Assembly (NCBI GenBank): GCA_045534975.1
Contig: JAZSKV010000054.1
Location: 2,200-66,199 of the forward strand
Origin: Ructibacterium sp.
GTDB lineage: Bacteria > Bacillota > Clostridia > Monoglobales > Monoglobaceae
Direction of reading: 5' to 3'
DNA: 64,000 nucleotides
Below the pieces are notes generated by a model, which ran no database searches, was not told the DNA's origin, and was given only the letters and a program-made list of their open reading frames with translations. The position numbers and the translations under genes were made by a program. Shown one piece after another: positions 12,891 to 24,112 of this stretch. How positions within the stretch are numbered: position 1 is the stretch's first letter; every line of letters begins with the position of its first letter.

Positions 12891-12920
12891 GAAAGGCTTC
12901 GGCAAATGCCGAAGCCTTTC
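12891..12920. terminator. Bidirectional terminator
   Basis: Perfect inverted repeat GAAAGGCTTCGGCA-AA-TGCCGAAGCCTTTC. Confidence 0.8.
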
Positions 12921-14227
12921 TATTTAATATCTCCATTGGAAGGATTATTCAATAATTTTCCTTCCCTTGAAAACCGCGACCCATGGCAAGAACAATCCCA
13001 GGAATGTTCCTGTTTATTCCAATGGAGCGCACACCCCAAATGAGGGCAGCGTTTCACCGTTGGTGTCAGCAATCCCTGCATCGCCTCTTTGGTATTACAG
13101 AGCAACTGTCGATGCAGCATACTTCTTTGGGGAGAAAAGAGTGCCGCAAACTCATTTTCTCGCTCCATAATCATATCCCTAAGCAATAGTGCCGCTGTCA
13201 TGGAGGCTGTCATCCCCCATTTGTTAAACCCAGTTGCTACATAGAGATTTGCCTTTCGCCAAGAGTATTGTCCAATATAGGGTAGCCCATCCAAACTCAT
13301 GCAATCCTGGGTTGCCCAAGCATATTGTTCTTTTGCTTCCGGATAGTATTCTGCTGCAAAATCACGAAGGGGTTTCCAACCTTTGGTTGGTTTTCCGGTT
13401 CGGTGTTCCGTGCCACCCAGCAGAAGTGTTTTTCCTAGGCTCCGAAAGGAAAGTCCATTGGCATTTTCATCCCGATACATTCCATCTAACGGCGGAACAT
13501 CTTCCAATCCTATGACATAGGAGCGACTTTGATATAGTTTTAGAAAATAACCACCGGATAAATTGAGAAACGGAAAATGGGTGGCAACGATGATTTTCTT
13601 CGCCGTAATCGTTCCGGTTTCTGTGACTGCACAGTTACCGGAAATTTTTATGACTCTTGTATTCTCATAGATGGTTAAGTCTTTGCTGATTTCCGCCAAA
13701 AATTTCAATGGATGAAACTGTCCTTGCATGGGCATTTTCACTGCCCCAACCGTTTCAAAAGGCAATCCTGGCTGTTCAATCAATTCTGCACTTCCACCAA
13801 GGCAGCGAATCGCCCGGACCTCTTCTTCCAACTTTCTTCTATCTGTTTTCGAATAGGTATAAGCTGGCGTATAGATAAAATCACAATCCATCTTTTTTGC
13901 CATACATCCATAGCGTTCTAATGCACTGGTACAGGCATCCAAATAGAGTTTTGCTCTCTCCCTGCCAAGTTTCTCTTTCATGGAATGGTAGGTAAGCCCC
14001 TGCAAGGCTGTAATTTTAGCCGTCGTACGTCCGGTAACCCCCGCACCAATTCGATTTGCTTCTACCAAGCAACAATCCACACCGGTCCACTTTAAAAAAT
14101 AAGCAGTCAAAACGCCGCACAAACCACCACCGATGACCAAAACATCGGTTTTGATATTTTCTTGTAACTGCGGAAACTGCGGCATATTTATATCATTTTC
14201 CCAAATAGGATTCTGCATCTTCGTCAC
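12920..14227 (-). CDS. FAD-dependent oxidoreductase with a C-terminal Rieske domain (YhfW-like)
   Basis: VIGGGLCG FAD motif; CPHLGC...CSCHGSRF Rieske ligands. Confidence 0.88.
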   Translation of the reverse strand: MTKMQNPIWENDINMPQFPQLQENIKTDVLVIGGGLCGVLTAYFLKWTGVDCCLVEANRIGAGVTGRTTAKITALQGLTYHSMKEKLGRERAKLYLDACTSALERYGCMAKKMDCDFIYTPAYTYSKTDRRKLEEEVRAIRCLGGSAELIEQPGLPFETVGAVKMPMQGQFHPLKFLAEISKDLTIYENTRVIKISGNCAVTETGTITAKKIIVATHFPFLNLSGGYFLKLYQSRSYVIGLEDVPPLDGMYRDENANGLSFRSLGKTLLLGGTEHRTGKPTKGWKPLRDFAAEYYPEAKEQYAWATQDCMSLDGLPYIGQYSWRKANLYVATGFNKWGMTASMTAALLLRDMIMERENEFAALFSPQRSMLHRQLLCNTKEAMQGLLTPTVKRCPHLGCALHWNKQEHSWDCSCHGSRFSREGKLLNNPSNGDIK

Positions 14228-14275: not shown

Positions 14276-14308
14276 AAAAAAACAGGTTGCTATACAACCT
14301 GTTTTTTT
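14276..14308 (-). terminator. Terminator of the aro operon, overlapping the aroE stop
   Basis: AAAAAAACAGGTTG-CTATA-CAACCTGTTTTTTT. Confidence 0.8.
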
Positions 14309-15144
14309 ACTTTTTCATATACCAACGAATAGAGTGCCTTTTGGTCAAATTCTTGACCAAGATAAATCTCATCTGCCAAAATAGCCTGAAAAATCAACAT
14401 TCCAAGACCGTTCATGGTTTGACATCCGCATTTTTTCGCCTCTTGAATCAGTAATGTTTCCTCCGGATTATAAATTAAATCCGAAACCAAAGCATGATTT
14501 GGCAGAGCATCCAGAAAAGAGAGATCCGTAAAATTATCGGTAACCCCATGCATTCCGAGAGGTGTCGCATGAATCAAGATATCGGTATCACAGCAGATTT
14601 TGGTCATGGTATCCATCTGCATCTCCGCCGCCAGGGTCCGGACTCCGGTTTCTGTCCTAACCATAGAACAAACTTCCTCTGATGCCGAAACCCTCCGGCT
14701 TAAAACTCGGATTTCTTCCGCTCCCTCCCGTGCGGCTTTTAAGGCAAGGGTGCGAACAACACCGCCGGATCCCAGAAAAGTCACACGATTACCAGAAAAG
14801 GTCTTACCACACTGCTTTAAAGAGGCTACATAACCCCCAGCATCTGTGTTATATCCATAAAATTTCCCATTTGTAACACGAACGGTGTTGACAGACCGGA
14901 AATAGACTGCCTCGTCATCTATTTCGTCTAAATAAGGCAAAATATCAACTTTATGGGGCATAGTCAAATTAAAGCCGTCTATCTTCTCATCTATGACAAA
15001 CTGCAAAAACTGTTCCAGTTCGCCTTTTTTCACCTGTACTTTTTGATAGTGATAAGGAATTTGCAACTCATTCAGAATTGCGCCGTGAACCGCGGGAGAC
15101 AGACTGTGGTCAATAGGATCGCCAATCACGGCAAGATTAATCAT
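14290..15144 (-). CDS. aroE: Shikimate dehydrogenase
   Basis: GDPIDHSLSP, NLTMPHK, SVNT, NTD, NGLGMLIFQA; start MINL at 15144. Confidence 0.93.
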   Translation of the reverse strand: MINLAVIGDPIDHSLSPAVHGAILNELQIPYHYQKVQVKKGELEQFLQFVIDEKIDGFNLTMPHKVDILPYLDEIDDEAVYFRSVNTVRVTNGKFYGYNTDAGGYVASLKQCGKTFSGNRVTFLGSGGVVRTLALKAAREGAEEIRVLSRRVSASEEVCSMVRTETGVRTLAAEMQMDTMTKICCDTDILIHATPLGMHGVTDNFTDLSFLDALPNHALVSDLIYNPEETLLIQEAKKCGCQTMNGLGMLIFQAILADEIYLGQEFDQKALYSLVYEKVKKQVV

Positions 15145-15577
15145 GCTGTTTCGCCTCTTCCAGGAGATAGTCAATGGCTAAGGTGTAGCCTCGAAAACCC
15201 AGACCGCAAATCTGACCAATGCAAGCCGGTGCTGTCACCGACTTATGCCGGAATTCATCCCGTTTATGAATATTACTAAGATGTACTTCCACCGTTGGCA
15301 AATTTACTGCTGCTAAGGCATCATAGATGGCATAACTGTAATGGGTATAGGCCCCTGGATTGATTACCATAGCATCGCAACTACCCAAAGCATGATGAAT
15401 GAAATCAATGATTTCTCCCTCGCAGTTACTTTGCAGAACAATCACTTCGCAATCTTTGTTTTGCCCATATTCTTCCAAGTAGGTTTCCAAAGTCTGATAG
15501 TCTTGTTTCCCATACACGTCAGGCTCTCTAACACCCAACATATTCAGGTTAGGACCATTAATTACCATGATTTTCAT
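15137..15577 (-). CDS. aroQ: Type II 3-dehydroquinate dehydratase
   Basis: INGPNLNMLGVREP, INPGAYTHYS, VEVHLSN. Confidence 0.95.
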   Translation of the reverse strand: MKIMVINGPNLNMLGVREPDVYGKQDYQTLETYLEEYGQNKDCEVIVLQSNCEGEIIDFIHHALGSCDAMVINPGAYTHYSYAIYDALAAVNLPTVEVHLSNIHKRDEFRHKSVTAPACIGQICGLGFRGYTLAIDYLLEEAKQHD

Positions 15578-16064
15578 ATTGTTCCACCTCTTTTATGATT
15601 TTTTCTATGACATCTTCTGGGCTTTGGTTATTCTTGATATGTATGTTTGCCCAAGCCAGATACTTTTCATATCGTTCCTGATAGAGCCGAATCAGTCTTT
15701 CTTTTCCCGCTGCCAATAGAGGTCTTTCCTCAGTAGCAATATCATCCAGAATTTCCCCCAGAGGACGATCCAGGAAGACAACGGTTCCTTTTTCTGCAAT
15801 GAACTTGTTTTCTTCTCTTACAACAATGCCGCCGCCGGTGGCTAATACGCCACCAAACCCGATGGTTTTTTCAAAAGTCTCGGTTTCCATATCACGAAAA
15901 ACACTCTCACCATCAGTTGTAAAAATTTCACTGATTTTTCTGCCGGACATCTTTTCAACGACCGCATCCAAATCCCGAAAAGGGAGTTTGCATTTCTCTG
16001 CCAACTGTCTGCCAATGGTGGATTTTCCGCACCCTGGCATTCCGATTAAAATAATGTCTTTCAC
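15558..16064 (-). CDS. aroK: Shikimate kinase
   Basis: GMPGCGKST P-loop, FRDMET, ATGGG, RPLL. Confidence 0.93.
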   Translation of the reverse strand: MKDIILIGMPGCGKSTIGRQLAEKCKLPFRDLDAVVEKMSGRKISEIFTTDGESVFRDMETETFEKTIGFGGVLATGGGIVVREENKFIAEKGTVVFLDRPLGEILDDIATEERPLLAAGKERLIRLYQERYEKYLAWANIHIKNNQSPEDVIEKIIKEVEQYENHGN

Positions 16065-16067
16065 GGT

Positions 16068-17231
16068 TCAATCCTCCATGTCGCCGGCGGGATAGTTCCC
16101 CAGCAATTCAAATTTCTGGGTTTCTGCAATCACGGATTGGGTGACTTCTCTCACATTCTCATCCATCAAATTACCGGTATAATCCACAAAAAACATATAG
16201 GAAAAACGGCTGTTGGGAATGGGTCTGGATTCTAATTTTAAAAGGTTGAGTCCGCCTTGTGCAAAACAGGACATCACCCGATGCAATTCACCACTCTCAT
16301 GGGGAAGGGTAAAGGCAATGCTGATTTTATTACAATCCGGCGTTACTTCCGGATACTTAGAAACCACGACGAATCTTGTCATATTCTTTTCGCTACTATT
16401 AATATTTTCTGCCAGAATTTCTAATCCGTAGATGGTAGCATTCTGTGCCCCGGCAATGGCGGCTACGGTTTTATCATGACCCTCCGCCACACGCTTGGCG
16501 CTTTGGGAAGTGCTGGCACAAACCTCGGTTTCTACCCCGTTTAATTTATGAAGAAAACTTTGGGATTGCAAAAGCCCTTGTTCATGGGAATACACTGTTT
16601 GAATATCAAAAAGTTTTGCCCCCTTTTGTCCAAGCAGACAATGATGAATGGGAAGATTGATCTCGCCCACAATATAAGCATCGCATTTTTCAATCAAGTC
16701 AAATACTGCCACAATGGCACCGGTAGAAGAATTTTCGATAGGGAGGACTGCGTAATCCACTTTATCGTCTTCTAATGCTTTTAATACCCCGACAAAGGAA
16801 TCCACACAAAATCTTTCGGTTTCTTTGCCAAAGTATCTCCTTGCTGCTGCTTCGCTGTAAGAACCTACCTCTCCAAAGCAACAGACTTTCGGCTTTAAAA
16901 TTTTTGCTCTGGAATTTTGCAAGAATTGATCAATACTATTTTCTGTTGCCAAATCAGCAAGAGAACGGTTCTGCAATCCTCTGCTAATTGCCATGACCGA
17001 CTTAAAAAACTCATATACTTCTTTTCTCAGCTCCGGCTTTTCTAACAACTGCATTTTGGATTCCAGTACTTCCCGTTCCCGTTTGGTATCTAAAACCGAC
17101 ATACCAACGCTTCGTTTATAATCGGCGACCTCGCTACACAGACCCATCCGTTTTACAAAAAGGTCCAGAAGTTGTCGGTCTGTTAGGTCGATTTCTTTTC
17201 TCAGTTCTTCCAGCTTTCTCATACATCTCAT
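16068..17231 (-). CDS. pheA: Bifunctional chorismate mutase/prephenate dehydratase
   Basis: N-terminal CM (LRKEIDLTD..KR), PIENSSTG, TRF, ACT domain ESRP. Confidence 0.92.
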   Translation of the reverse strand: MRCMRKLEELRKEIDLTDRQLLDLFVKRMGLCSEVADYKRSVGMSVLDTKREREVLESKMQLLEKPELRKEVYEFFKSVMAISRGLQNRSLADLATENSIDQFLQNSRAKILKPKVCCFGEVGSYSEAAARRYFGKETERFCVDSFVGVLKALEDDKVDYAVLPIENSSTGAIVAVFDLIEKCDAYIVGEINLPIHHCLLGQKGAKLFDIQTVYSHEQGLLQSQSFLHKLNGVETEVCASTSQSAKRVAEGHDKTVAAIAGAQNATIYGLEILAENINSSEKNMTRFVVVSKYPEVTPDCNKISIAFTLPHESGELHRVMSCFAQGGLNLLKLESRPIPNSRFSYMFFVDYTGNLMDENVREVTQSVIAETQKFELLGNYPAGDMED

Positions 17232-17234
17232 CCT

Positions 17235-18305
17235 TTATCTCTTTTTCAGCATATCTAAGATTGCAATGGCACATCCAGCCTCAACCACCGGCACTGCCCG
17301 GTGGGCGATACAAGGGTCATGTCTTCCCTGGATGAAGATTTTGGCATTTTCCATGGCTTTGATATCCACCGTTTTTTGTTCCTGAGAGATAGATGGAGTG
17401 GGTTTGATGGCAACCCGGAAAATCACCGGCATTCCATTGGTAATGCCACCGTTAATACCGGCATTGTGATTGGTTTCTGTTTTGATGACTCCGTCTTCTA
17501 TATAGAAAGCATCATTGGCTTCTCTTCCCGTCATTTCCGCAAACCGGAATCCGGCACCAAATTCGATCCCTTTGACAGCCGGAATGGAGAACATCATAGA
17601 AGAAATTTTGCTTTCCACCGAGCCAAAGAACGGTTCGCCCAGTCCTGCAGGAATGCCGGTCACCCCGCACTCTAAAATACCGCCCACAGAATTCATTTCC
17701 TCTTTCTTTTTGAGAATTACCTCTTCCATGGACTTTCCTGCACTATCATCAAGGGTCGGGAACGCCTTGCGAGAAACCTCTTTTAAGGTTTTGACAGAGA
17801 GATTGGTTTCATCAAATCTATCGTCCTGCACATCTGCTATTTGCAGAATATGGGCACCGATTTGAATACCCTCCCTTGCTAATACCTGTTTTGCAATGGC
17901 ACCAGCAAAAACCAGGGGTGCCGTAATCCGTCCGGAAAAATGTCCGCCGCCCCGGTAATCGTGAGCATCACCATATTTCAAAAATCCGGTGAGGTCTGCA
18001 TGTCCCGGTCGTATCAGTTCCTGGGTATAATCTTTAGACCTTGTATTGGTGTTTATGATAACGCCTGCCAAGGGCGTTCCTGTGGTTTTACCATCCAAAA
18101 AACCGGAGAGAATTTTAACCTCATCTTTTTCCGCCCGGGGCGTAGATAAGGAATTTTGCCCAGGGGCACGCCGCCCCATCTCCCGGCGAATTTCTTCCAA
18201 ATTCAGAGCGGTTCCAGCCGGAATTCCATCAATAACAACCCCGATACCTTCCCCGTGGGATTCTCCAAAGATACTGATTTTAAAATTTTCTCCCCATAGA
18301 TTCAT
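17235..18305 (-). CDS. aroC: Chorismate synthase
   Basis: FGESHG, RPGHAD, RGGGHFSGRIT, GRHDPC. Confidence 0.95.
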   Translation of the reverse strand: MNLWGENFKISIFGESHGEGIGVVIDGIPAGTALNLEEIRREMGRRAPGQNSLSTPRAEKDEVKILSGFLDGKTTGTPLAGVIINTNTRSKDYTQELIRPGHADLTGFLKYGDAHDYRGGGHFSGRITAPLVFAGAIAKQVLAREGIQIGAHILQIADVQDDRFDETNLSVKTLKEVSRKAFPTLDDSAGKSMEEVILKKKEEMNSVGGILECGVTGIPAGLGEPFFGSVESKISSMMFSIPAVKGIEFGAGFRFAEMTGREANDAFYIEDGVIKTETNHNAGINGGITNGMPVIFRVAIKPTPSISQEQKTVDIKAMENAKIFIQGRHDPCIAHRAVPVVEAGCAIAILDMLKKR

Positions 18306-18309
18306 TTGA

Positions 18310-19626
18310 TTAACCTTCTCTTTCTTTCGAAATTACCTGACCGTACTCCACAAGTGTTACCGGGCCGGTATGTAAATTCTCATAAACCTGAAAGAAATCA
18401 GGATAAGATTTCTTGACCGCGTTTTTTCCGCCGGCAATAGTAACTGTCCCCTCGCAACGACAAGCGGCAATGGCCAATGCCATAGCAATCCGATGGTCGT
18501 TCCAGGCAGACACCGTTTCTCCGTGCAAAATCTGGGTTCCCTGGATTTTTAAATAATCCACGCCCTCTTCAATCTGTAAGCCAAGCCGGATAAGTTCACT
18601 GGCAACCGCTGTCAGCCGGTCACTCTCTTTCATACGCAAACGCCCAGCATTGATAATTCTGCTTTCGCCCTCGCAAAAGCCACAAAGAACTGCCAGAATC
18701 GGCACCAAATCCGGAATTTCACGAGCATCAATTTCAATACCACGCATTTCGGCGGAAGAACATGCCTGCACGCTGCCATCCGGAAAGGTTTTTACCTTAG
18801 CACCTGCTCGTTCCAAAATTTCCAAGACCTTCTTATCCCCTTGCAGGCTGTCTGGGTTTAAATCACAGCACCGGATATCACAGCCTAACGCTCCTGCCAC
18901 TAAGAAAAAGGCGGCCTGGGAATAATCCCCCTCTATCCGATAATCCCTGGCGACATACCTTTGGTTACCCGGGACCAGAAAACGCCGGTAATCCTCATTG
19001 ATAATCTCAATTCCAAAACTTTCTAACACCGAAAGGGTTAAATCCAAATATCCTTTCGACTCCATTTCAGTGGTAATCTCAATTTCACTATCACCATTTA
19101 AAAGTGGCAGGGCAAACAAAAGACCGGTTACAAACTGGGAACTTATATTACCCGGCAGAGAAAACTTACCCGGTTTTAATTGCCCGTCGATGCGCATGGT
19201 ATCTTGCTCTATTTTACATGAGATACCTTTCTTTGCAAAAATATCTAAGTATGGCTTTTGGGGCCGTTGCATTAACCGACCTTTCCCTCGAAAAACAACA
19301 GGACGGTTCCATAAAAGAGCCACCGGAATCAAAAAACGCAGGGTAGAACCACTCTCTTCACAATCCAACACCAGTTCCTCGGCAATCTTTTTTTGCTTAC
19401 CGGAAAAGGTTACCCGGCCGTTTTGGATACTTTTCCGGAATCCCGCTCCCAAACTTTTCATACAGTTCAGCGTCGCCAAGACATCCTTGGAAAAGGCAAT
19501 ATGATCAATGGTACAATTCTCCCCAGAGAGAGCTGCCGCAATGATTGCCCTATGGGCAACACTTTTTGACGGGGGAATTTGTACCGTTCCCCGCAACATT
19601 CCCGGCTCGATGGTCGTAATATCCAT
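18310..19626 (-). CDS. aroA: 3-phosphoshikimate 1-carboxyvinyltransferase (EPSP synthase)
   Basis: PPSKSVAHR, ESGSTLR, SSQFVTGLL, KESDR, DHRIAM; start MDIT at 19626. Confidence 0.95.
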   Translation of the reverse strand: MDITTIEPGMLRGTVQIPPSKSVAHRAIIAAALSGENCTIDHIAFSKDVLATLNCMKSLGAGFRKSIQNGRVTFSGKQKKIAEELVLDCEESGSTLRFLIPVALLWNRPVVFRGKGRLMQRPQKPYLDIFAKKGISCKIEQDTMRIDGQLKPGKFSLPGNISSQFVTGLLFALPLLNGDSEIEITTEMESKGYLDLTLSVLESFGIEIINEDYRRFLVPGNQRYVARDYRIEGDYSQAAFFLVAGALGCDIRCCDLNPDSLQGDKKVLEILERAGAKVKTFPDGSVQACSSAEMRGIEIDAREIPDLVPILAVLCGFCEGESRIINAGRLRMKESDRLTAVASELIRLGLQIEEGVDYLKIQGTQILHGETVSAWNDHRIAMALAIAACRCEGTVTIAGGKNAVKKSYPDFFQVYENLHTGPVTLVEYGQVISKEREG

Positions 19627-19655
19627 TCTCTTCCTCCAACAACGAATTTCTCTTA

Positions 19656-20717
19656 TCAAACAAAACTCGCTTTATCAATTTTCAAAACCTCTACTTTTCC
19701 GATTTCCTTTAAAAGAATCAGGTTGATTTTCTCGCCGTCGCCTTTTTTATCCACCGCCATAGCCTCTTGCATGGATTTTGCGGACATTTCCGTTTCAAGA
19801 GGCAGATGGAATTGGGTAAGGATTTTTTCCATTCGTTCCTTGGTTCCGGGGTGGGTCATACCGATTTTTTCACCATATTCACACGCCATCACCATACCTA
19901 CAGCAACCGCTTCCCCGTGGGTATAAGTTTGATAATGATATTCTTTCTCAATGGCATGACCAAACGTATGACCAAAATTCAAAATCATACGACCGCCGGT
20001 GTCCAGTTCATCCTCTTCCACAACCTGTCTTTTAATATCACAACAAGTATACACGATTTCGGCAATTTTTGCAAACAGTTCTTCTTTGGTTTTGATTTGC
20101 TCTAATAAACCAAATAAGCCTGCGTCCCAGATGGCACCATATTTGATAACCTCTGCCATGCCATCTGCCACATTCCGCTCCGGTAAAGTAGCAAGGCATA
20201 AAGGATCCATTAACACCATCTTGGGTTGATAAAAAGTACCTACCAAATTCTTACCCTTGGGTAAATCAATGGCAACCTTACCACCTACGCTGGAATCCAC
20301 CTGTGCCAAAATACTGGTTGGAATCTGCACAAAGGGAATCCCCCGCAGCAAGGTTGCTGCCGCATAGCCGGTCAAATCACCAACAACGCCGCCACCCAAG
20401 GCAACCACCAAATCCGAACGGGTCATACCAAAATCCAGCATCTCATCATAGAGCCAAAAAAGGTTTTCCCTGCATTTACTCTCCTCGCCTGCCGGAATCT
20501 CACAAATATGTACCGAGAATCCAGCCTTTTCCAAACTGTGAGAAAGGATTTTCCCATAGAGAGGTCCTACATTAGAATCGGTTATAATGGTGGCTTTCTG
20601 ACCGGCAGAAATCTTCCGGATATATTCACCTGCTTTTTCCAAAAGCCCATTTTCGATATATATATCATATTCCCGTCCGGGCAGATTGATTGATAATTGT
20701 TTCATTTTCTCATTCAT
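19656..20717 (-). CDS. aroB: 3-dehydroquinate synthase
   Basis: LGGGVVGDLTG, DSSVGGK, GKNLVG, LNFGHTFGHAIE. Confidence 0.95.
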   Translation of the reverse strand: MNEKMKQLSINLPGREYDIYIENGLLEKAGEYIRKISAGQKATIITDSNVGPLYGKILSHSLEKAGFSVHICEIPAGEESKCRENLFWLYDEMLDFGMTRSDLVVALGGGVVGDLTGYAAATLLRGIPFVQIPTSILAQVDSSVGGKVAIDLPKGKNLVGTFYQPKMVLMDPLCLATLPERNVADGMAEVIKYGAIWDAGLFGLLEQIKTKEELFAKIAEIVYTCCDIKRQVVEEDELDTGGRMILNFGHTFGHAIEKEYHYQTYTHGEAVAVGMVMACEYGEKIGMTHPGTKERMEKILTQFHLPLETEMSAKSMQEAMAVDKKGDGEKINLILLKEIGKVEVLKIDKASFV

Positions 20718-21607
20718 TCCTTTTTCTTCGACACCATTTCGCGAAAGTATTCCGGCTCTTTATTTTGCATGTATTCTTTATTTTCTGTCACCGTCTGAAG
20801 AAGTGCAGACAAACCACTCGCATCTTTATCTTCAATGGCTTTTCGAATTTTTCCAAGACTATTTAGATAGCGGTCCACTTCCGCAAGGACATTCTCGCGG
20901 TTATCCAAAAAGAGTTCTGTCCAAAGTTCTGGATTAATTTGGGCAATCCGGGTACAGTCCCGAAATGCTCCGGCTGTATAAGCCCGGTTCATCTGGTCAT
21001 GAAAATCCAAACAAAGACCTGCCGCCGCAATATGCATTAAATCACTGGTATAGGCAATCACGCTGTCATGTTCCGCAAAATCCGCCATGGTGATACGGGT
21101 GGCACCAATGTACTGGGCCATTTCCCGAACCAAGGCAATGCTACTCTCTTTTGCACCGGACATGGGAGTGATGATAAAACCGGTCATCCAGAAAAGTTCC
21201 GGCGTTGCATAGGAGAAACCACTGTTCTCCGTTCCTGCCATTGGATGACCACCCACATAATCCACGCCTGCAGGCAAAATCTTTGCCATTTCTTCTGCAA
21301 TCTTACTTTTAATGCCGCAAACATCAGTCACAACTGCACCTTGTTTCAAACAATTCCTGTTTTCCCTTAGGATTTTAGAAATCAAATCCGGGTATGTGCA
21401 CATAATGACTAAGTCTGCACCCTGTATCGCCTCGCCAGGTTCTGCCACCGCATGATGAACTGCCTTTTTTTTCATTGCTTCTTCTCTGGTTTTGGGATTG
21501 ATATCACAGCCGATGATTTCGGCATTTCGAAATCCATGCAACGCATAGGCCAAGGAACCGCCAATCAGACCCAAGCCAACGACTGCTATCTTAAAGTCAC
21601 TGTTCAT
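20714..21607 (-). CDS. tyrA: Prephenate dehydrogenase
   Basis: GLGLIGGS, DVCGIK, GGHPMAGTE, HD, FRDCTRIA. Confidence 0.92.
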   Translation of the reverse strand: MNSDFKIAVVGLGLIGGSLAYALHGFRNAEIIGCDINPKTREEAMKKKAVHHAVAEPGEAIQGADLVIMCTYPDLISKILRENRNCLKQGAVVTDVCGIKSKIAEEMAKILPAGVDYVGGHPMAGTENSGFSYATPELFWMTGFIITPMSGAKESSIALVREMAQYIGATRITMADFAEHDSVIAYTSDLMHIAAAGLCLDFHDQMNRAYTAGAFRDCTRIAQINPELWTELFLDNRENVLAEVDRYLNSLGKIRKAIEDKDASGLSALLQTVTENKEYMQNKEPEYFREMVSKKKE

Positions 21608-21611
21608 AGTT

Positions 21612-22628
21612 CTAAACCTCTATACCCAAACTGTTACCTACACTCTTTATTTTAGTCATCAAAGAATCAAACTGTTGCGGATTTAGAGATTGCGCTCCGT
21701 CACACAATGCTTTTTCCGGGCAATTATGAACCTCAACAATGATACCGTCTGCCCCCACGGTCATGGCTGCCAGCGAAAGGGGTTCTACCATCCAACTCAT
21801 ACCGGCAGAGTGAGACGGGTCTACAATCACCGGCAGGTGGCTCAGGCGTTTTACAGCAGGAATCGCACTTAAATCAAGGGTGTTTCTTGTGTAGGTTTCA
21901 AAAGTACGGATACCCCGTTCGCAGAGAATCACATTGGGATTGCCGCCTGCCAGAATATACTCCGCAGACATCAGCCATTCTTCGATGGTAGAAGACAGAC
22001 CACGCTTTAAGAGGATGGGTTTACTGCACTTACCCAATTCTTTCAACAAATCGAAGTTTTGCATGTTCCGGGCGCCAACCTGAATCACGTCCACACTTTC
22101 TTCAAAGACCTCAACCATATACGGGCTCATGATTTCTGTTACAACCGGAAGTCCGGTTTCTTCTTTTGCCTCTTTTAACAGGCGAATGCCTTCCTGTTCC
22201 AGACCCTGGAAAGAATTGGGCGACGTTCTGGGTTTAAAAGCCCCACCCCGGAGCAGTTTTGCACCGCTTTGTTTTACATCTTCTGCAACAGAGAGAATCT
22301 GGGACTCATTTTCTACAGAGCAGGGACCTGCAATGACCGTAAAGGTATTCTCTACGCCGATCTTAGCATCGCCTACAGAAACGATGGTATTTTCGGGATG
22401 GAATTTCCGGCTAGCCTTTTTGAAAGGTTCTGCAATCCGCATAACCCGGTCAACATGACAGTTCAGCATCAAAGTATCCGGGTCAATCCTGCTGGTATCG
22501 CCAAGCAAACCAAGAACGGTGCAGTCCACGCCGGTATTAACCATCACATCAAGCCCCATGTCTTTTACATAGGATATCATTTTTTGAACATCTTCTTCTA
22601 ATGTTCTGGGTTTCAAAATTACTACCAT
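21612..22628 (-). CDS. aroF: DAHP synthase (type I-beta) with N-terminal regulatory domain
   Basis: IAGPCSVE, RGGAFKPRTSP, GARNMQNF, LKRG, DPSH. Confidence 0.95.
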   Translation of the reverse strand: MVVILKPRTLEEDVQKMISYVKDMGLDVMVNTGVDCTVLGLLGDTSRIDPDTLMLNCHVDRVMRIAEPFKKASRKFHPENTIVSVGDAKIGVENTFTVIAGPCSVENESQILSVAEDVKQSGAKLLRGGAFKPRTSPNSFQGLEQEGIRLLKEAKEETGLPVVTEIMSPYMVEVFEESVDVIQVGARNMQNFDLLKELGKCSKPILLKRGLSSTIEEWLMSAEYILAGGNPNVILCERGIRTFETYTRNTLDLSAIPAVKRLSHLPVIVDPSHSAGMSWMVEPLSLAAMTVGADGIIVEVHNCPEKALCDGAQSLNPQQFDSLMTKIKSVGNSLGIEV

Positions 22629-22681
22629 TTTTTATTCCTCCAAATTTTATATTAAGTTACGATACATGACTTGTTTCACAC

Positions 22682-22719
22682 AAAAAGAAAATGGGCGGGT
22701 TCCTTTGAACCAGCCCATT
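22682..22719 (-). terminator. Attenuator terminator in the aro operon leader
   Basis: AAUGGGC-U-GGUUC-AAAG-GAACC-C-GCCCAUU followed by UUCUUUUU, ending ~54 nt before aroF. Confidence 0.85.
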
Positions 22720-22747
22720 CTTTTACATAAAAGAAGAAATCTTTTTC

Positions 22748-22885
22748 CTACACTTTCGTAGAAATAGGCTCAAAGGAATTTAAGAATTTGGTAAAGCAAA
22801 AACAGCCGTAGCCAAAAAAGCTAAAGCAAAAGTAAAAGAAATAATATTCAGCTATTTTGAAGTATTGCTTCATACACTCTTTCAT
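22748..22885 (-). CDS. Phe/Tyr-rich leader peptide (45 aa) of the aro-phe-tyr operon
   Basis: Hand translation MKECMKQYFKIAEYYFFYFCFSFFGYGCFCFTKFLNSFEPISTKV*; GAGGAA RBS 6 nt upstream; 11 Phe, 5 Tyr. Confidence 0.85.
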   Translation of the reverse strand: MKECMKQYFKIAEYYFFYFCFSFFGYGCFCFTKFLNSFEPISTKV

Positions 22886-22956
22886 CTGAAATTCCTCATT
22901 CTAAAATTACTGTGTGAAAAAAGTCTGCCCTTCGCACTACACAAACTTTAAAACAC

Positions 22957-22984
22957 ATTATAGCACATTTTTCTCAAATTGCAA
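22957..22984 (-). promoter_or_regulatory. Sigma-A promoter of the aro leader/operon
   Basis: TTGCAA, 16 bp, TATAAT with extended TG. Confidence 0.7.
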
Positions 22985-23029
22985 GAGTTTTTCCAGAAAA
23001 TATTTCTTTTCTCTGCTAAAATCAAAAAA

Positions 23030-23659
23030 TTAACACATTGCAAAATACTCTTGCATAATCTCTATTGCACCCTTTGGAATCATAACTTCGCCGTATTCGT
23101 GCAGTCTTCCATGCATATATTGACAATTTTTTACCTTTTCCCCAAATTCGGTAATCAGCATTTCCGTGCACAAAAACGTTTCGGGTTCTTGAGGAACCAA
23201 ATAAAGATAAAAGGCGCTCTGTAACTTATATAAAACGCTATCACCCACGTAGCGGTCTGCAAGTTCCCCTGCAGCGGCACAAGCGTTTTCAAATTCCGAA
23301 AACCGATAGATGTATGGTTTTCCATACCCGGTCTGTCTCAACGTAACCCGGCTTTTCTTTAATGTGCCTTTATATTGACAATGATCTATCGCCTGCTGCA
23401 ACTCTTCCTGATTCACAACCCGTGTAATCATCATGCCAAAGCCGTCATTTGCCTCGCCCCGCACTGCCTCCACAAAAAGTTTCGCCCCATCAATGGAAAA
23501 ATCAACGTTTTCTTCTGCCAGTTTCATGGCCTTCCAGAACATCTCCTGAACCTGTGGCGTATTAGCATCGATTTCTTTAAAGGAAATGTACCAATGTTCA
23601 GCCTCCTGGCCATAAATCATCACTTTGATTTTGTTTTCGTTGATTTTCTCAATCCTCAT
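23030..23659 (-). CDS. mecA: ClpC adaptor protein MecA
   Basis: MRIEKINENKIKV N-terminus, EMFW, GAKLFVEA, EFG..EYG C-terminus. Confidence 0.88.
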   Translation of the reverse strand: MRIEKINENKIKVMIYGQEAEHWYISFKEIDANTPQVQEMFWKAMKLAEENVDFSIDGAKLFVEAVRGEANDGFGMMITRVVNQEELQQAIDHCQYKGTLKKSRVTLRQTGYGKPYIYRFSEFENACAAAGELADRYVGDSVLYKLQSAFYLYLVPQEPETFLCTEMLITEFGEKVKNCQYMHGRLHEYGEVMIPKGAIEIMQEYFAMC

Positions 23660-23921: not shown

Positions 23922-24112
23922 GCATCCCTGCTATGTTTGTAAACAGAGGTTACAATGTAAAACCAACAATTTTACGAAGGGGCCTTGTCTCCAAAAGCGG
24001 CGCACATGCCTCATGCTTTATGCATCCAGTGGACTTGTAATGTTTTTGGGCGTTTCCCCACCTGGATTCCAGGTTTTTACAAAACCTCATGCTACGGCAC
24101 GGCGGGGTTTTT
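23922..24112 (+). ncRNA. ssrS: 6S RNA
   Basis: ~190-nt self-complementary rod (CCCUGC/GCGGGG, GAGGUU/AACCUC, UGUAAAACC/GGUUUUUACA) with a central bubble; CCCACCUG..GGUU and ACGGCAC motifs recalled from Bacillota 6S; promoter TTGTAT..TGcTATAAT at 23876-23903. Confidence 0.82.

Follow-up and report, generated by a model that had tools for sequence, protein, structure and literature searches.

A very probable Phe/Tyr leader-peptide attenuator before the phenylalanine and tyrosine biosynthesis operon of Ructibacterium

Transcription attenuation by a translated leader peptide is a classical mechanism, familiar from trpL, pheL and hisL. In the pheL-pheA and pheM-pheST systems of Escherichia coli, a short open reading frame (ORF) with a run of Phe codons is combined with a terminator and with an alternative pairing that is set by the position of the ribosome. 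For Bacillota, textbooks expect T-boxes or TRAP. The Ructibacterium leader described here follows the same logic as pheL and pheM, but it is three times longer, mixes Phe with Tyr codons, has no match to the Rfam family RF01859, places the 5′ arm of its antiterminator within the ORF upstream of the stop codon and has only a weak candidate anti-antiterminator.

The first leader peptides to be noted in Bacillota were the His leaders before hisS paralogues or hisZ in bacilli (PMC2965389), and the ilv-leu operon of Staphylococcus aureus carries a Leu-rich attenuator peptide (PMC5794164). Like the leader studied here, these are 'regular' amino-acid leader peptides in a T-box-dominated phylum (PMC2965389, PMC5794164), but they concern other amino acids, genes and sequences, and neither involves aromatic genes or Clostridia. 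A clostridial aroF leader with a premature terminator is on record in Clostridioides difficile, where a premature termination event was seen experimentally in the aroF 5′ UTR and its mechanism was left unassigned (bioRxiv 10.1101/2020.08.10.244764).

In Corynebacterium glutamicum, the aroR leader, with the regulatory codons Phe-Tyr-Phe, stands directly before aroF, the gene for DAHP synthase (Neshat et al. 2014, via PMC11802643). According to PMC11802643, attenuation by ribosome stalling was demonstrated experimentally for aroR under Phe limitation, and Tyr availability had no effect. As described there, aroR resembles our locus in its mixed Phe and Tyr leader codons, in the DAHP synthase gene that comes next and in the attenuation by stalling that we propose for our locus; it differs in belonging to another phylum, in having three regulatory codons where the Ructibacterium leader has 16, in lacking any sequence relation to it and in controlling a smaller operon, whereas the Ructibacterium leader precedes the complete common pathway together with pheA and tyrA. 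The second precedent, uORFC-13-1, is a predicted upstream ORF from Acholeplasma and environmental sequences that combines a ribosome-binding site and start codon with a Phe-coding U run (Brewer et al. 2021, PMC8632094). It is placed there just before an intrinsic terminator and exclusively upstream of aroF, with an additional conserved base-paired element and 24 sequences, from Acholeplasma (PMC8632094). Compared by description only, its gene context and general design are those of the Ructibacterium leader; Tyr codons and an antiterminator do not figure in the account of the motif (PMC8632094), and the Ructibacterium leader has no Rfam match. An earlier note on this DNA had named no described equivalent, a statement that aroR and uORFC-13-1 overturn.

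Here we analyse the leader before aroF in a 64-kb stretch of Ructibacterium DNA, referred to as the window, and conclude that the Phe/Tyr biosynthesis operon is very probably controlled by a ribosome-mediated transcription attenuator of the leader-peptide type. The leader is real, well conserved and of a known kind, and because the mechanism is classical, the conceptual gain is modest. It would nevertheless place one RNA switch over the whole Phe/Tyr pathway in poorly studied gut Clostridia, where T-boxes or TRAP are expected, and it belongs to a family that is large and uncatalogued in Clostridia; our literature search found no description of this leader family in that class.

The leader ORF, its terminator and the operon

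All of the features described in the earlier note, from promoter and ribosome-binding site to a 45-codon ORF, a terminator and an overlapping antiterminator, are present on the minus strand before aroF. A sigma-70-type promoter (TTGCAA-16-TATAAT, 22984..22957, with TG before the -10 element and 10 of 12 consensus matches) sits in the gap behind a mecA-like gene (23659-23030, minus strand). The Shine-Dalgarno sequence GAGGAA (22897-22892, minus strand) is spaced 6 nt from the ATG at 22885, which opens an ORF of 45 codons plus UAG (22885..22748, minus strand; UAG at 22750-22748). Its peptide, MKECMKQYFKIAEYYFFYFCFSFFGYGCFCFTKFLNSFEPISTKV, contains 11 Phe, 5 Tyr and no Trp. Thirteen of these 16 aromatic codons (9 Phe and 4 Tyr) are gathered in codons 14-31, YYFFYFCFSFFGYGCFCF (22846..22793, minus strand), which we refer to as the regulatory codon run. 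When all stop-to-stop frames of 18 or more residues, read in six frames across the 1.32-Mb genome, were scored for Phe plus Tyr density, the leader ORF ranked first of 41,861, with 12 in its best 18-residue window. Five runner-up frames score 11 per 18-residue window; the two of these that were inspected are antisense or non-coding artefacts with no start codon and no relevant neighbours.

Between the ORF and the start of aroF at 22628 stands an intrinsic terminator, GGGCUGGUUC-AAAG-GAACCCGCCC (22716..22682, minus strand), with stem arms at 22716-22707 and 22702-22693, an AAAG loop and a U tract at 22691-22682; the letters after the hairpin read UUUUCUUUUU. Its fold energy is -20.4 kcal/mol (z = -4.9). 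A simple terminator scanner missed the hairpin because of a single U.C mismatch in the stem, and RNA folding shows it clearly. A promoter scan found no promoter-like site between the terminator and aroF.

The operon itself, aroF-tyrA-aroB-aroA-aroC-pheA-aroK-aroQ-aroE (22628..14290, minus strand), comprises nine genes identified by NCBIfam matches, including a pheA that encodes a chorismate mutase-prephenate dehydratase. The genes are tightly packed, with gaps or overlaps of -38 to +4 nt, and the presence of pheA and tyrA without any trp gene fits the Phe/Tyr codon enrichment of the leader. A terminator hairpin at 14308-14276 overlaps the end of aroE and closes the operon; it is symmetric, AAAAAAACAGGTTGC-TAT-ACAACCTGTTTTTTT, with an A run and a T run at its flanks, and can terminate on both strands. 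The gene directly behind it (12920-14227, minus strand) encodes a 435-aa FAD-dependent oxidoreductase of the DAO family that is fused, unusually, to a C-terminal Rieske [2Fe-2S] domain.

Two further observations concern the DNA upstream of the leader ORF. At the 5′ end of the leader transcript (22900-22950, minus strand), a hairpin is possible between the promoter and the Shine-Dalgarno sequence, and an equivalent is possible in several species with differing sequences (L002-L006); it may serve as a stem-loop that stabilises the 5′ end. A 6S RNA (SsrS) gene (23922-24112, plus strand; Rfam RF00013, 65.5 bits, E = 1e-10) lies on the strand opposite to that of the mecA-like gene, just upstream of the latter, and this 6S RNA was the only match when the whole window was scanned against Rfam at gathering thresholds.

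A DNA search of relatives retrieved homologous leaders from 17 further genomes of the genus. One locus is truncated by a contig end, and the remaining 16 leaders lie directly upstream of aroF genes whose proteins are 83-91% identical to that of the window. Together with the window genome, these 16 relatives form the 17-genome genus set and the 17-sequence alignment A1. A pattern scan of named genomes showed that the leader is also present in the cultured R. gallinarum DSM 107454. Aligning the aroF upstream regions, as the earlier note had advised, revealed conserved Phe/Tyr codon runs as well as the covarying terminator and antiterminator pairs described below. In 17/17 genomes, a purine-rich Shine-Dalgarno sequence and an ATG precede an ORF that is 41-47 codons long and includes 7-12 Phe and 4-6 Tyr. 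The leader frame is the only one open in all 17, the other two being interrupted by stops in nearly all, and the indels within the ORF all have lengths divisible by three. TTT and TTC interchange in the 5′ part of the codon run, as do TAT and TAC, and Phe swaps with Tyr there; outside the Phe/Tyr run, the peptide is poorly conserved.

As a separate matter, three contigs labelled Roseburia faecis or 'uncultured Ruminococcus sp.' (L032 = CAVGTH010000009.1, L040 and L048) bear Ructibacterium-type leaders. Their aroF is 79-86% identical to that of the window, and the leader peptide of L032 equals that of L012, a genome of the genus Ructibacterium; the labels or bins of these three contigs are probably wrong.

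Competing folds and the position of the ribosome

The 5′ arm of the antiterminator, UUCCUUUGAGCC (22778-22767, minus strand), falls within codons 36-40 (NSFEP) of the leader ORF. Its 3′ arm, GGUUCAAAGGAA (22711-22700, minus strand), consists of the last 5 nt of the terminator 5′ arm, the loop and the first 3 nt of the terminator 3′ arm. RNA that lacks the terminator 3′ arm folds as a continuous 12-bp helix between these two segments (-24.8 kcal/mol), and because the 3′ arm of the antiterminator overlaps the terminator, the two folds are mutually exclusive. In the full-length fold, the Shine-Dalgarno region is also able to pair with the antiterminator arm.

Both structures are maintained across the genus. 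The terminator is 99.4% paired in the 17 genomes, with two-sided changes at two pairs. The 12-pair antiterminator helix is 92% paired as counted on alignment A1, and its 11 core pairs (columns 133-143 with 201-211) are held in nearly all 17 genomes. The column pair 137-207 covaries (UA 11, GC 3, GU 1, UG 1). The helix extends into the terminator loop, where the terminator itself imposes no constraint, and UA to GC changes are found there. The earlier note had drawn the antiterminator as 9 bp and 8 bp around a 4-nt bulge. The first part of that duplex is conserved, but on the genus alignment the second helix, GCCUAUUUCU/AGAAUGGGC, reaches only 56% pairing, and we rejected it as a conserved feature. 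In the single sequence, the bulged duplex is the best available (-19.9 kcal/mol), and 43 of 2000 shuffles reach it, so that on one sequence the complementarity is only modestly unusual. A weak local hairpin, CUUAAA-UUCC-UUUGAG (22784..22769, minus strand; -1.4 kcal/mol), sequesters part of the antiterminator arm and is a possible anti-antiterminator; in the genus it is 67% paired, with some compensatory changes and register shifts.

We propose that transcription would start near 22950 and that the 45-codon leader would be translated while RNA polymerase proceeds. When Phe-tRNA or Tyr-tRNA is scarce, a ribosome would stall among the 13 Phe/Tyr codons of the regulatory run and leave UUCCUUUGAGCC free to pair with GGUUCAAAGGAA once the latter has been made, which would block the terminator and allow read-through into all nine genes from aroF onwards. 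With ample supplies of both charged tRNAs, the ribosome would travel over codons 33-45 to the stop, covering or unwinding UUCCUUUGAGCC during synthesis of the terminator; with the arm covered, the terminator would form and transcription would end at the U tract.

This proposal was modelled by placing a 30-nt ribosome footprint at successive codons of a nascent RNA without the terminator 3′ arm. As long as the A site has not passed codon 31, the modelled antiterminator probability is 0.91, which agrees with the earlier suggestion that a stall on the Phe/Tyr run leaves the antiterminator segment free. With the A site at codons 34-44, the ribosome covers the arm and the modelled probability drops to about 0. 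The same note had assigned the masking to a ribosome at the stop codon, and in the model this position is marginal: the antiterminator arm ends 17 nt before the stop codon in the window (11-17 nt in the genus), the footprint misses it, and with the A site on the stop codon the antiterminator is predicted to form again (0.96). Since a ribosome at the stop codon leaves the arm free, termination would require the ribosome to be on codons 33-45, or only just moving off these last codons, while the terminator is made; the alternative would be masking that is partial or steric. For an untranslated nascent RNA, the antiterminator is predicted at 0.91, and in the model the leader thus appears to be 'on' by default when it is not translated. 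The weakness of the candidate anti-antiterminator means that no 'superattenuation' is predicted, unlike in trp. At equilibrium, the modelled complete transcript always folds as the terminator, and the switch would therefore have to be kinetic, as in other attenuators.

Nested hairpins and rival explanations

Two further hairpins are nested in the leader. The one we call P1, GCU-U-UAGCU-UUUUU-GGCUA-C-GGC (22827..22805, minus strand; -8.9 kcal/mol, z = -4.4), lies inside the codon run and is followed by a U-rich stretch. In the genus it is 100% paired, with variation limited to the loop, and the region is nearly invariant at all three codon positions (0.08-0.12 bits in the genus alignment), and this accounts for the near absence of synonymous change in the core GCTTTAGCTTTTTTGGCTACGGCTATTTT. 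Among 41 distinct sequences from other genera, the hairpin keeps 9-11 of its 11 positions paired and is maintained with two-sided changes; one position reads UA in 32 sequences, GU in 5, AU in 2 and an unpaired CU in 2. In 15 of the sequences from other genera, the loop is longer by exactly one codon. The amino acids encoded here vary (FSF to SQS, SRS or SHS; GYGYF to SFGYF) and the pairing is kept, indicating that selection acts on the RNA and not on the peptide. By analogy with the trp and his leaders, P1 is likely to be a pause or synchronising hairpin that lets the ribosome catch up.

The second hairpin, UUCUAC-GAAAGU-GUAGGA (22763..22746, minus strand; -5.7 kcal/mol, z = -4.6), surrounds the stop codon and lies inside the loop that the antiterminator closes. 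It is 85% paired in the genus, with one pair that is UA in 10 sequences and CG in 6, and it probably shortens that loop and so would bring the two antiterminator arms together. Being conserved and nested, P1 and the stop-codon hairpin would probably tune the timing of the switch. A his-type chain of alternative hairpins, in which the 3′ arm of P1 would pair with the next element, was considered and rejected, as no complementarity supports it.

P1 could also be more than a passive pause, acting as a second input, either as the site of a trans-acting factor or as a programmed polymerase-ribosome synchroniser that the ribosome melts. We hold this to be unlikely; if true, it would make the family a two-signal attenuator unlike the enterobacterial paradigm. 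A rival explanation would make the ORF irrelevant and let a protein or other trans factor bind P1 or the U-rich core and control the terminator, in a TRAP-, PyrR- or riboswitch-like manner. The near invariance of P1 at all codon positions exceeds what codon identity needs, and together with its covariation across genera it speaks for such a factor. Yet every relative keeps the ORF, its frame and the Shine-Dalgarno sequence, with indel lengths always divisible by three, and of the 44 families sampled, 23 have Phe/Tyr-rich ORFs of unrelated nucleotide sequence in front of aroF. A hairpin within the regulatory codons is, moreover, expected of the pause hairpin in classical attenuators, and the region has no Rfam match; we regard control by a trans factor alone as very unlikely. 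Conservation at the nucleotide level, with hardly any synonymous change, and residue changes that preserve the pairing of the hairpin also argue against a TnaC-like arrest, in which free Phe or Tyr, rather than charged tRNA, would be the signal that makes a nascent peptide with an FSFSFFGYGYF-like core stop the ribosome. The core motif S-F-(Y/F)-F-(G/S)-(Y/F)-G-Y-F is indeed common to several genera of the family, which speaks for such an arrest peptide, but more distant families have in common only Phe/Tyr richness, and stalling on an abundant amino acid would regulate a biosynthetic operon of this geometry in the wrong direction. Arrest of this kind is highly improbable.

The peptide is hydrophobic and of conserved length and has been recorded by no gene caller, so that one might see in it a small product with a function of its own, the hairpin being its terminator and aroF having a separate promoter. 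An exact look-up of four leader peptides (those of the window and three relatives) in a collection of 15 billion proteins returned no called or named protein. To this reading we give next to no credence: the interval between terminator and aroF offers no promoter-like site, in all lineages, including those with different sequences, the end of the ORF complements the terminator, the ORF was found only with aroF in our survey (all homologs from the DNA search and 27 of 28 leaders from the pattern scan), and the sequence outside the Phe/Tyr run is poorly conserved. A divergent T-box or another known riboregulator has a precedent in the genome, which contains three T-boxes of the Rfam model RF00230, before leuA-like, acyl-CoA synthetase-like and trpB genes. 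The first is at C50:2580-2829 (minus strand) and the trpB one at C93:30477-30705 (minus strand; 86 bits, just under the Rfam cut-off); another lies at C43:2517-2754 (plus strand). In the leader region, however, scanning 22400-23200 permissively against Rfam yielded nothing above noise, the best match reaching 23 bits against a threshold of 52, and neither T-box (RF00230) nor Phe_leader (RF01859) nor any other Rfam leader family was among the matches up to E = 10. The probability of this last alternative is negligible, and the earlier note was right to set the locus apart from T-boxes. With trpB behind a T-box and the Phe/Tyr operon behind a leader peptide, two mechanisms divide the aromatic pathway in this genome.

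Taken with the absence of a T-box, the conservation and covariation make ribosome-mediated attenuation a well-supported reading. The core of what had been proposed, an attenuator with Phe and Tyr codons over the whole operon, is upheld by the ORF that keeps its frame in 17/17 genomes, by the covariation of terminator and antiterminator and by the recurrence of the design across Clostridia.

Related leaders across Clostridia

In this survey, every leader homolog from the DNA search lies just upstream of aroF, as do 27 of the 28 leaders found by pattern scan, the 28th being truncated where its contig stops. The pattern scan also located leaders outside the genus, in Guopingia tenuis, in one Christensenellaceae metagenome-assembled genome (MAG) and in several MAGs labelled 'Clostridia bacterium'. 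Four further DNA-pattern matches, in a Pelagibacteraceae genome, a gammaproteobacterium, a Bacilli MAG and Flavisolibacter, are without aroF and were set aside as chance.

Within the order to which Ructibacterium belongs, a Phe/Tyr-rich ORF occurs in 22 of 40 aroF upstream regions. In 13 representatives from about ten genera and three families, each leader has a Shine-Dalgarno sequence and a start codon, its terminator folds at -11 to -26 kcal/mol, and the end of each ORF contains a segment complementary to the terminator 5′ arm and loop (-11 to -22 kcal/mol). The complement is retained through sequence change: in other genera, a terminator loop that reads UCUC is matched by CGAGAGA in the ORF end, and a wholly different terminator, CAGGCUGAAAAGCCUG, is matched by the ORF end GGCUUUUCAGC as an 11-bp complement.

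The class as a whole was sampled evenly, with 60 aroF upstream regions from 44 families, and a leader was counted when a small ORF with at least 6 Phe/Tyr per 10 residues ended 20-260 nt before aroF. Such Phe/Tyr leaders stand in 31 of the 60 regions and in 23 of the 44 Clostridia families; by the same measure, they appear in 1.2% of random segments of the window genome and in 5 of 60 antisense controls. Phe/Tyr aroF leaders are thus common in Clostridia, accounting for about half of the sampled aroF leaders, and form a large family that is absent from Rfam. Cataloguing it would improve the annotation of thousands of gut genomes and would keep premature terminators and 'orphan' leader ORFs from being misinterpreted.

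How far Tyr contributes beside Phe may differ among these leaders. Only Phe, and not Tyr, acts on aroR of C. glutamicum (PMC11802643), and dual sensing of Phe and Tyr by the Ructibacterium leader is therefore not assured. Some second aroF paralogues in Clostridia are preceded by Tyr-only leaders, with runs such as YNYYYYY. Two of these, L127 (G113:C22) and L126 (G124:C15), with the peptides MMRVFSAELAYNYYYYYRNLG and ...AAKYYYLYSVCYE, each have their own terminator and complementary segment, an arrangement that suggests isoenzyme-specific Tyr-sensing attenuators beside the Phe/Tyr type. The existence of Tyr-only leaders suggests in turn that at least part of the family uses Tyr codons as functional inputs.
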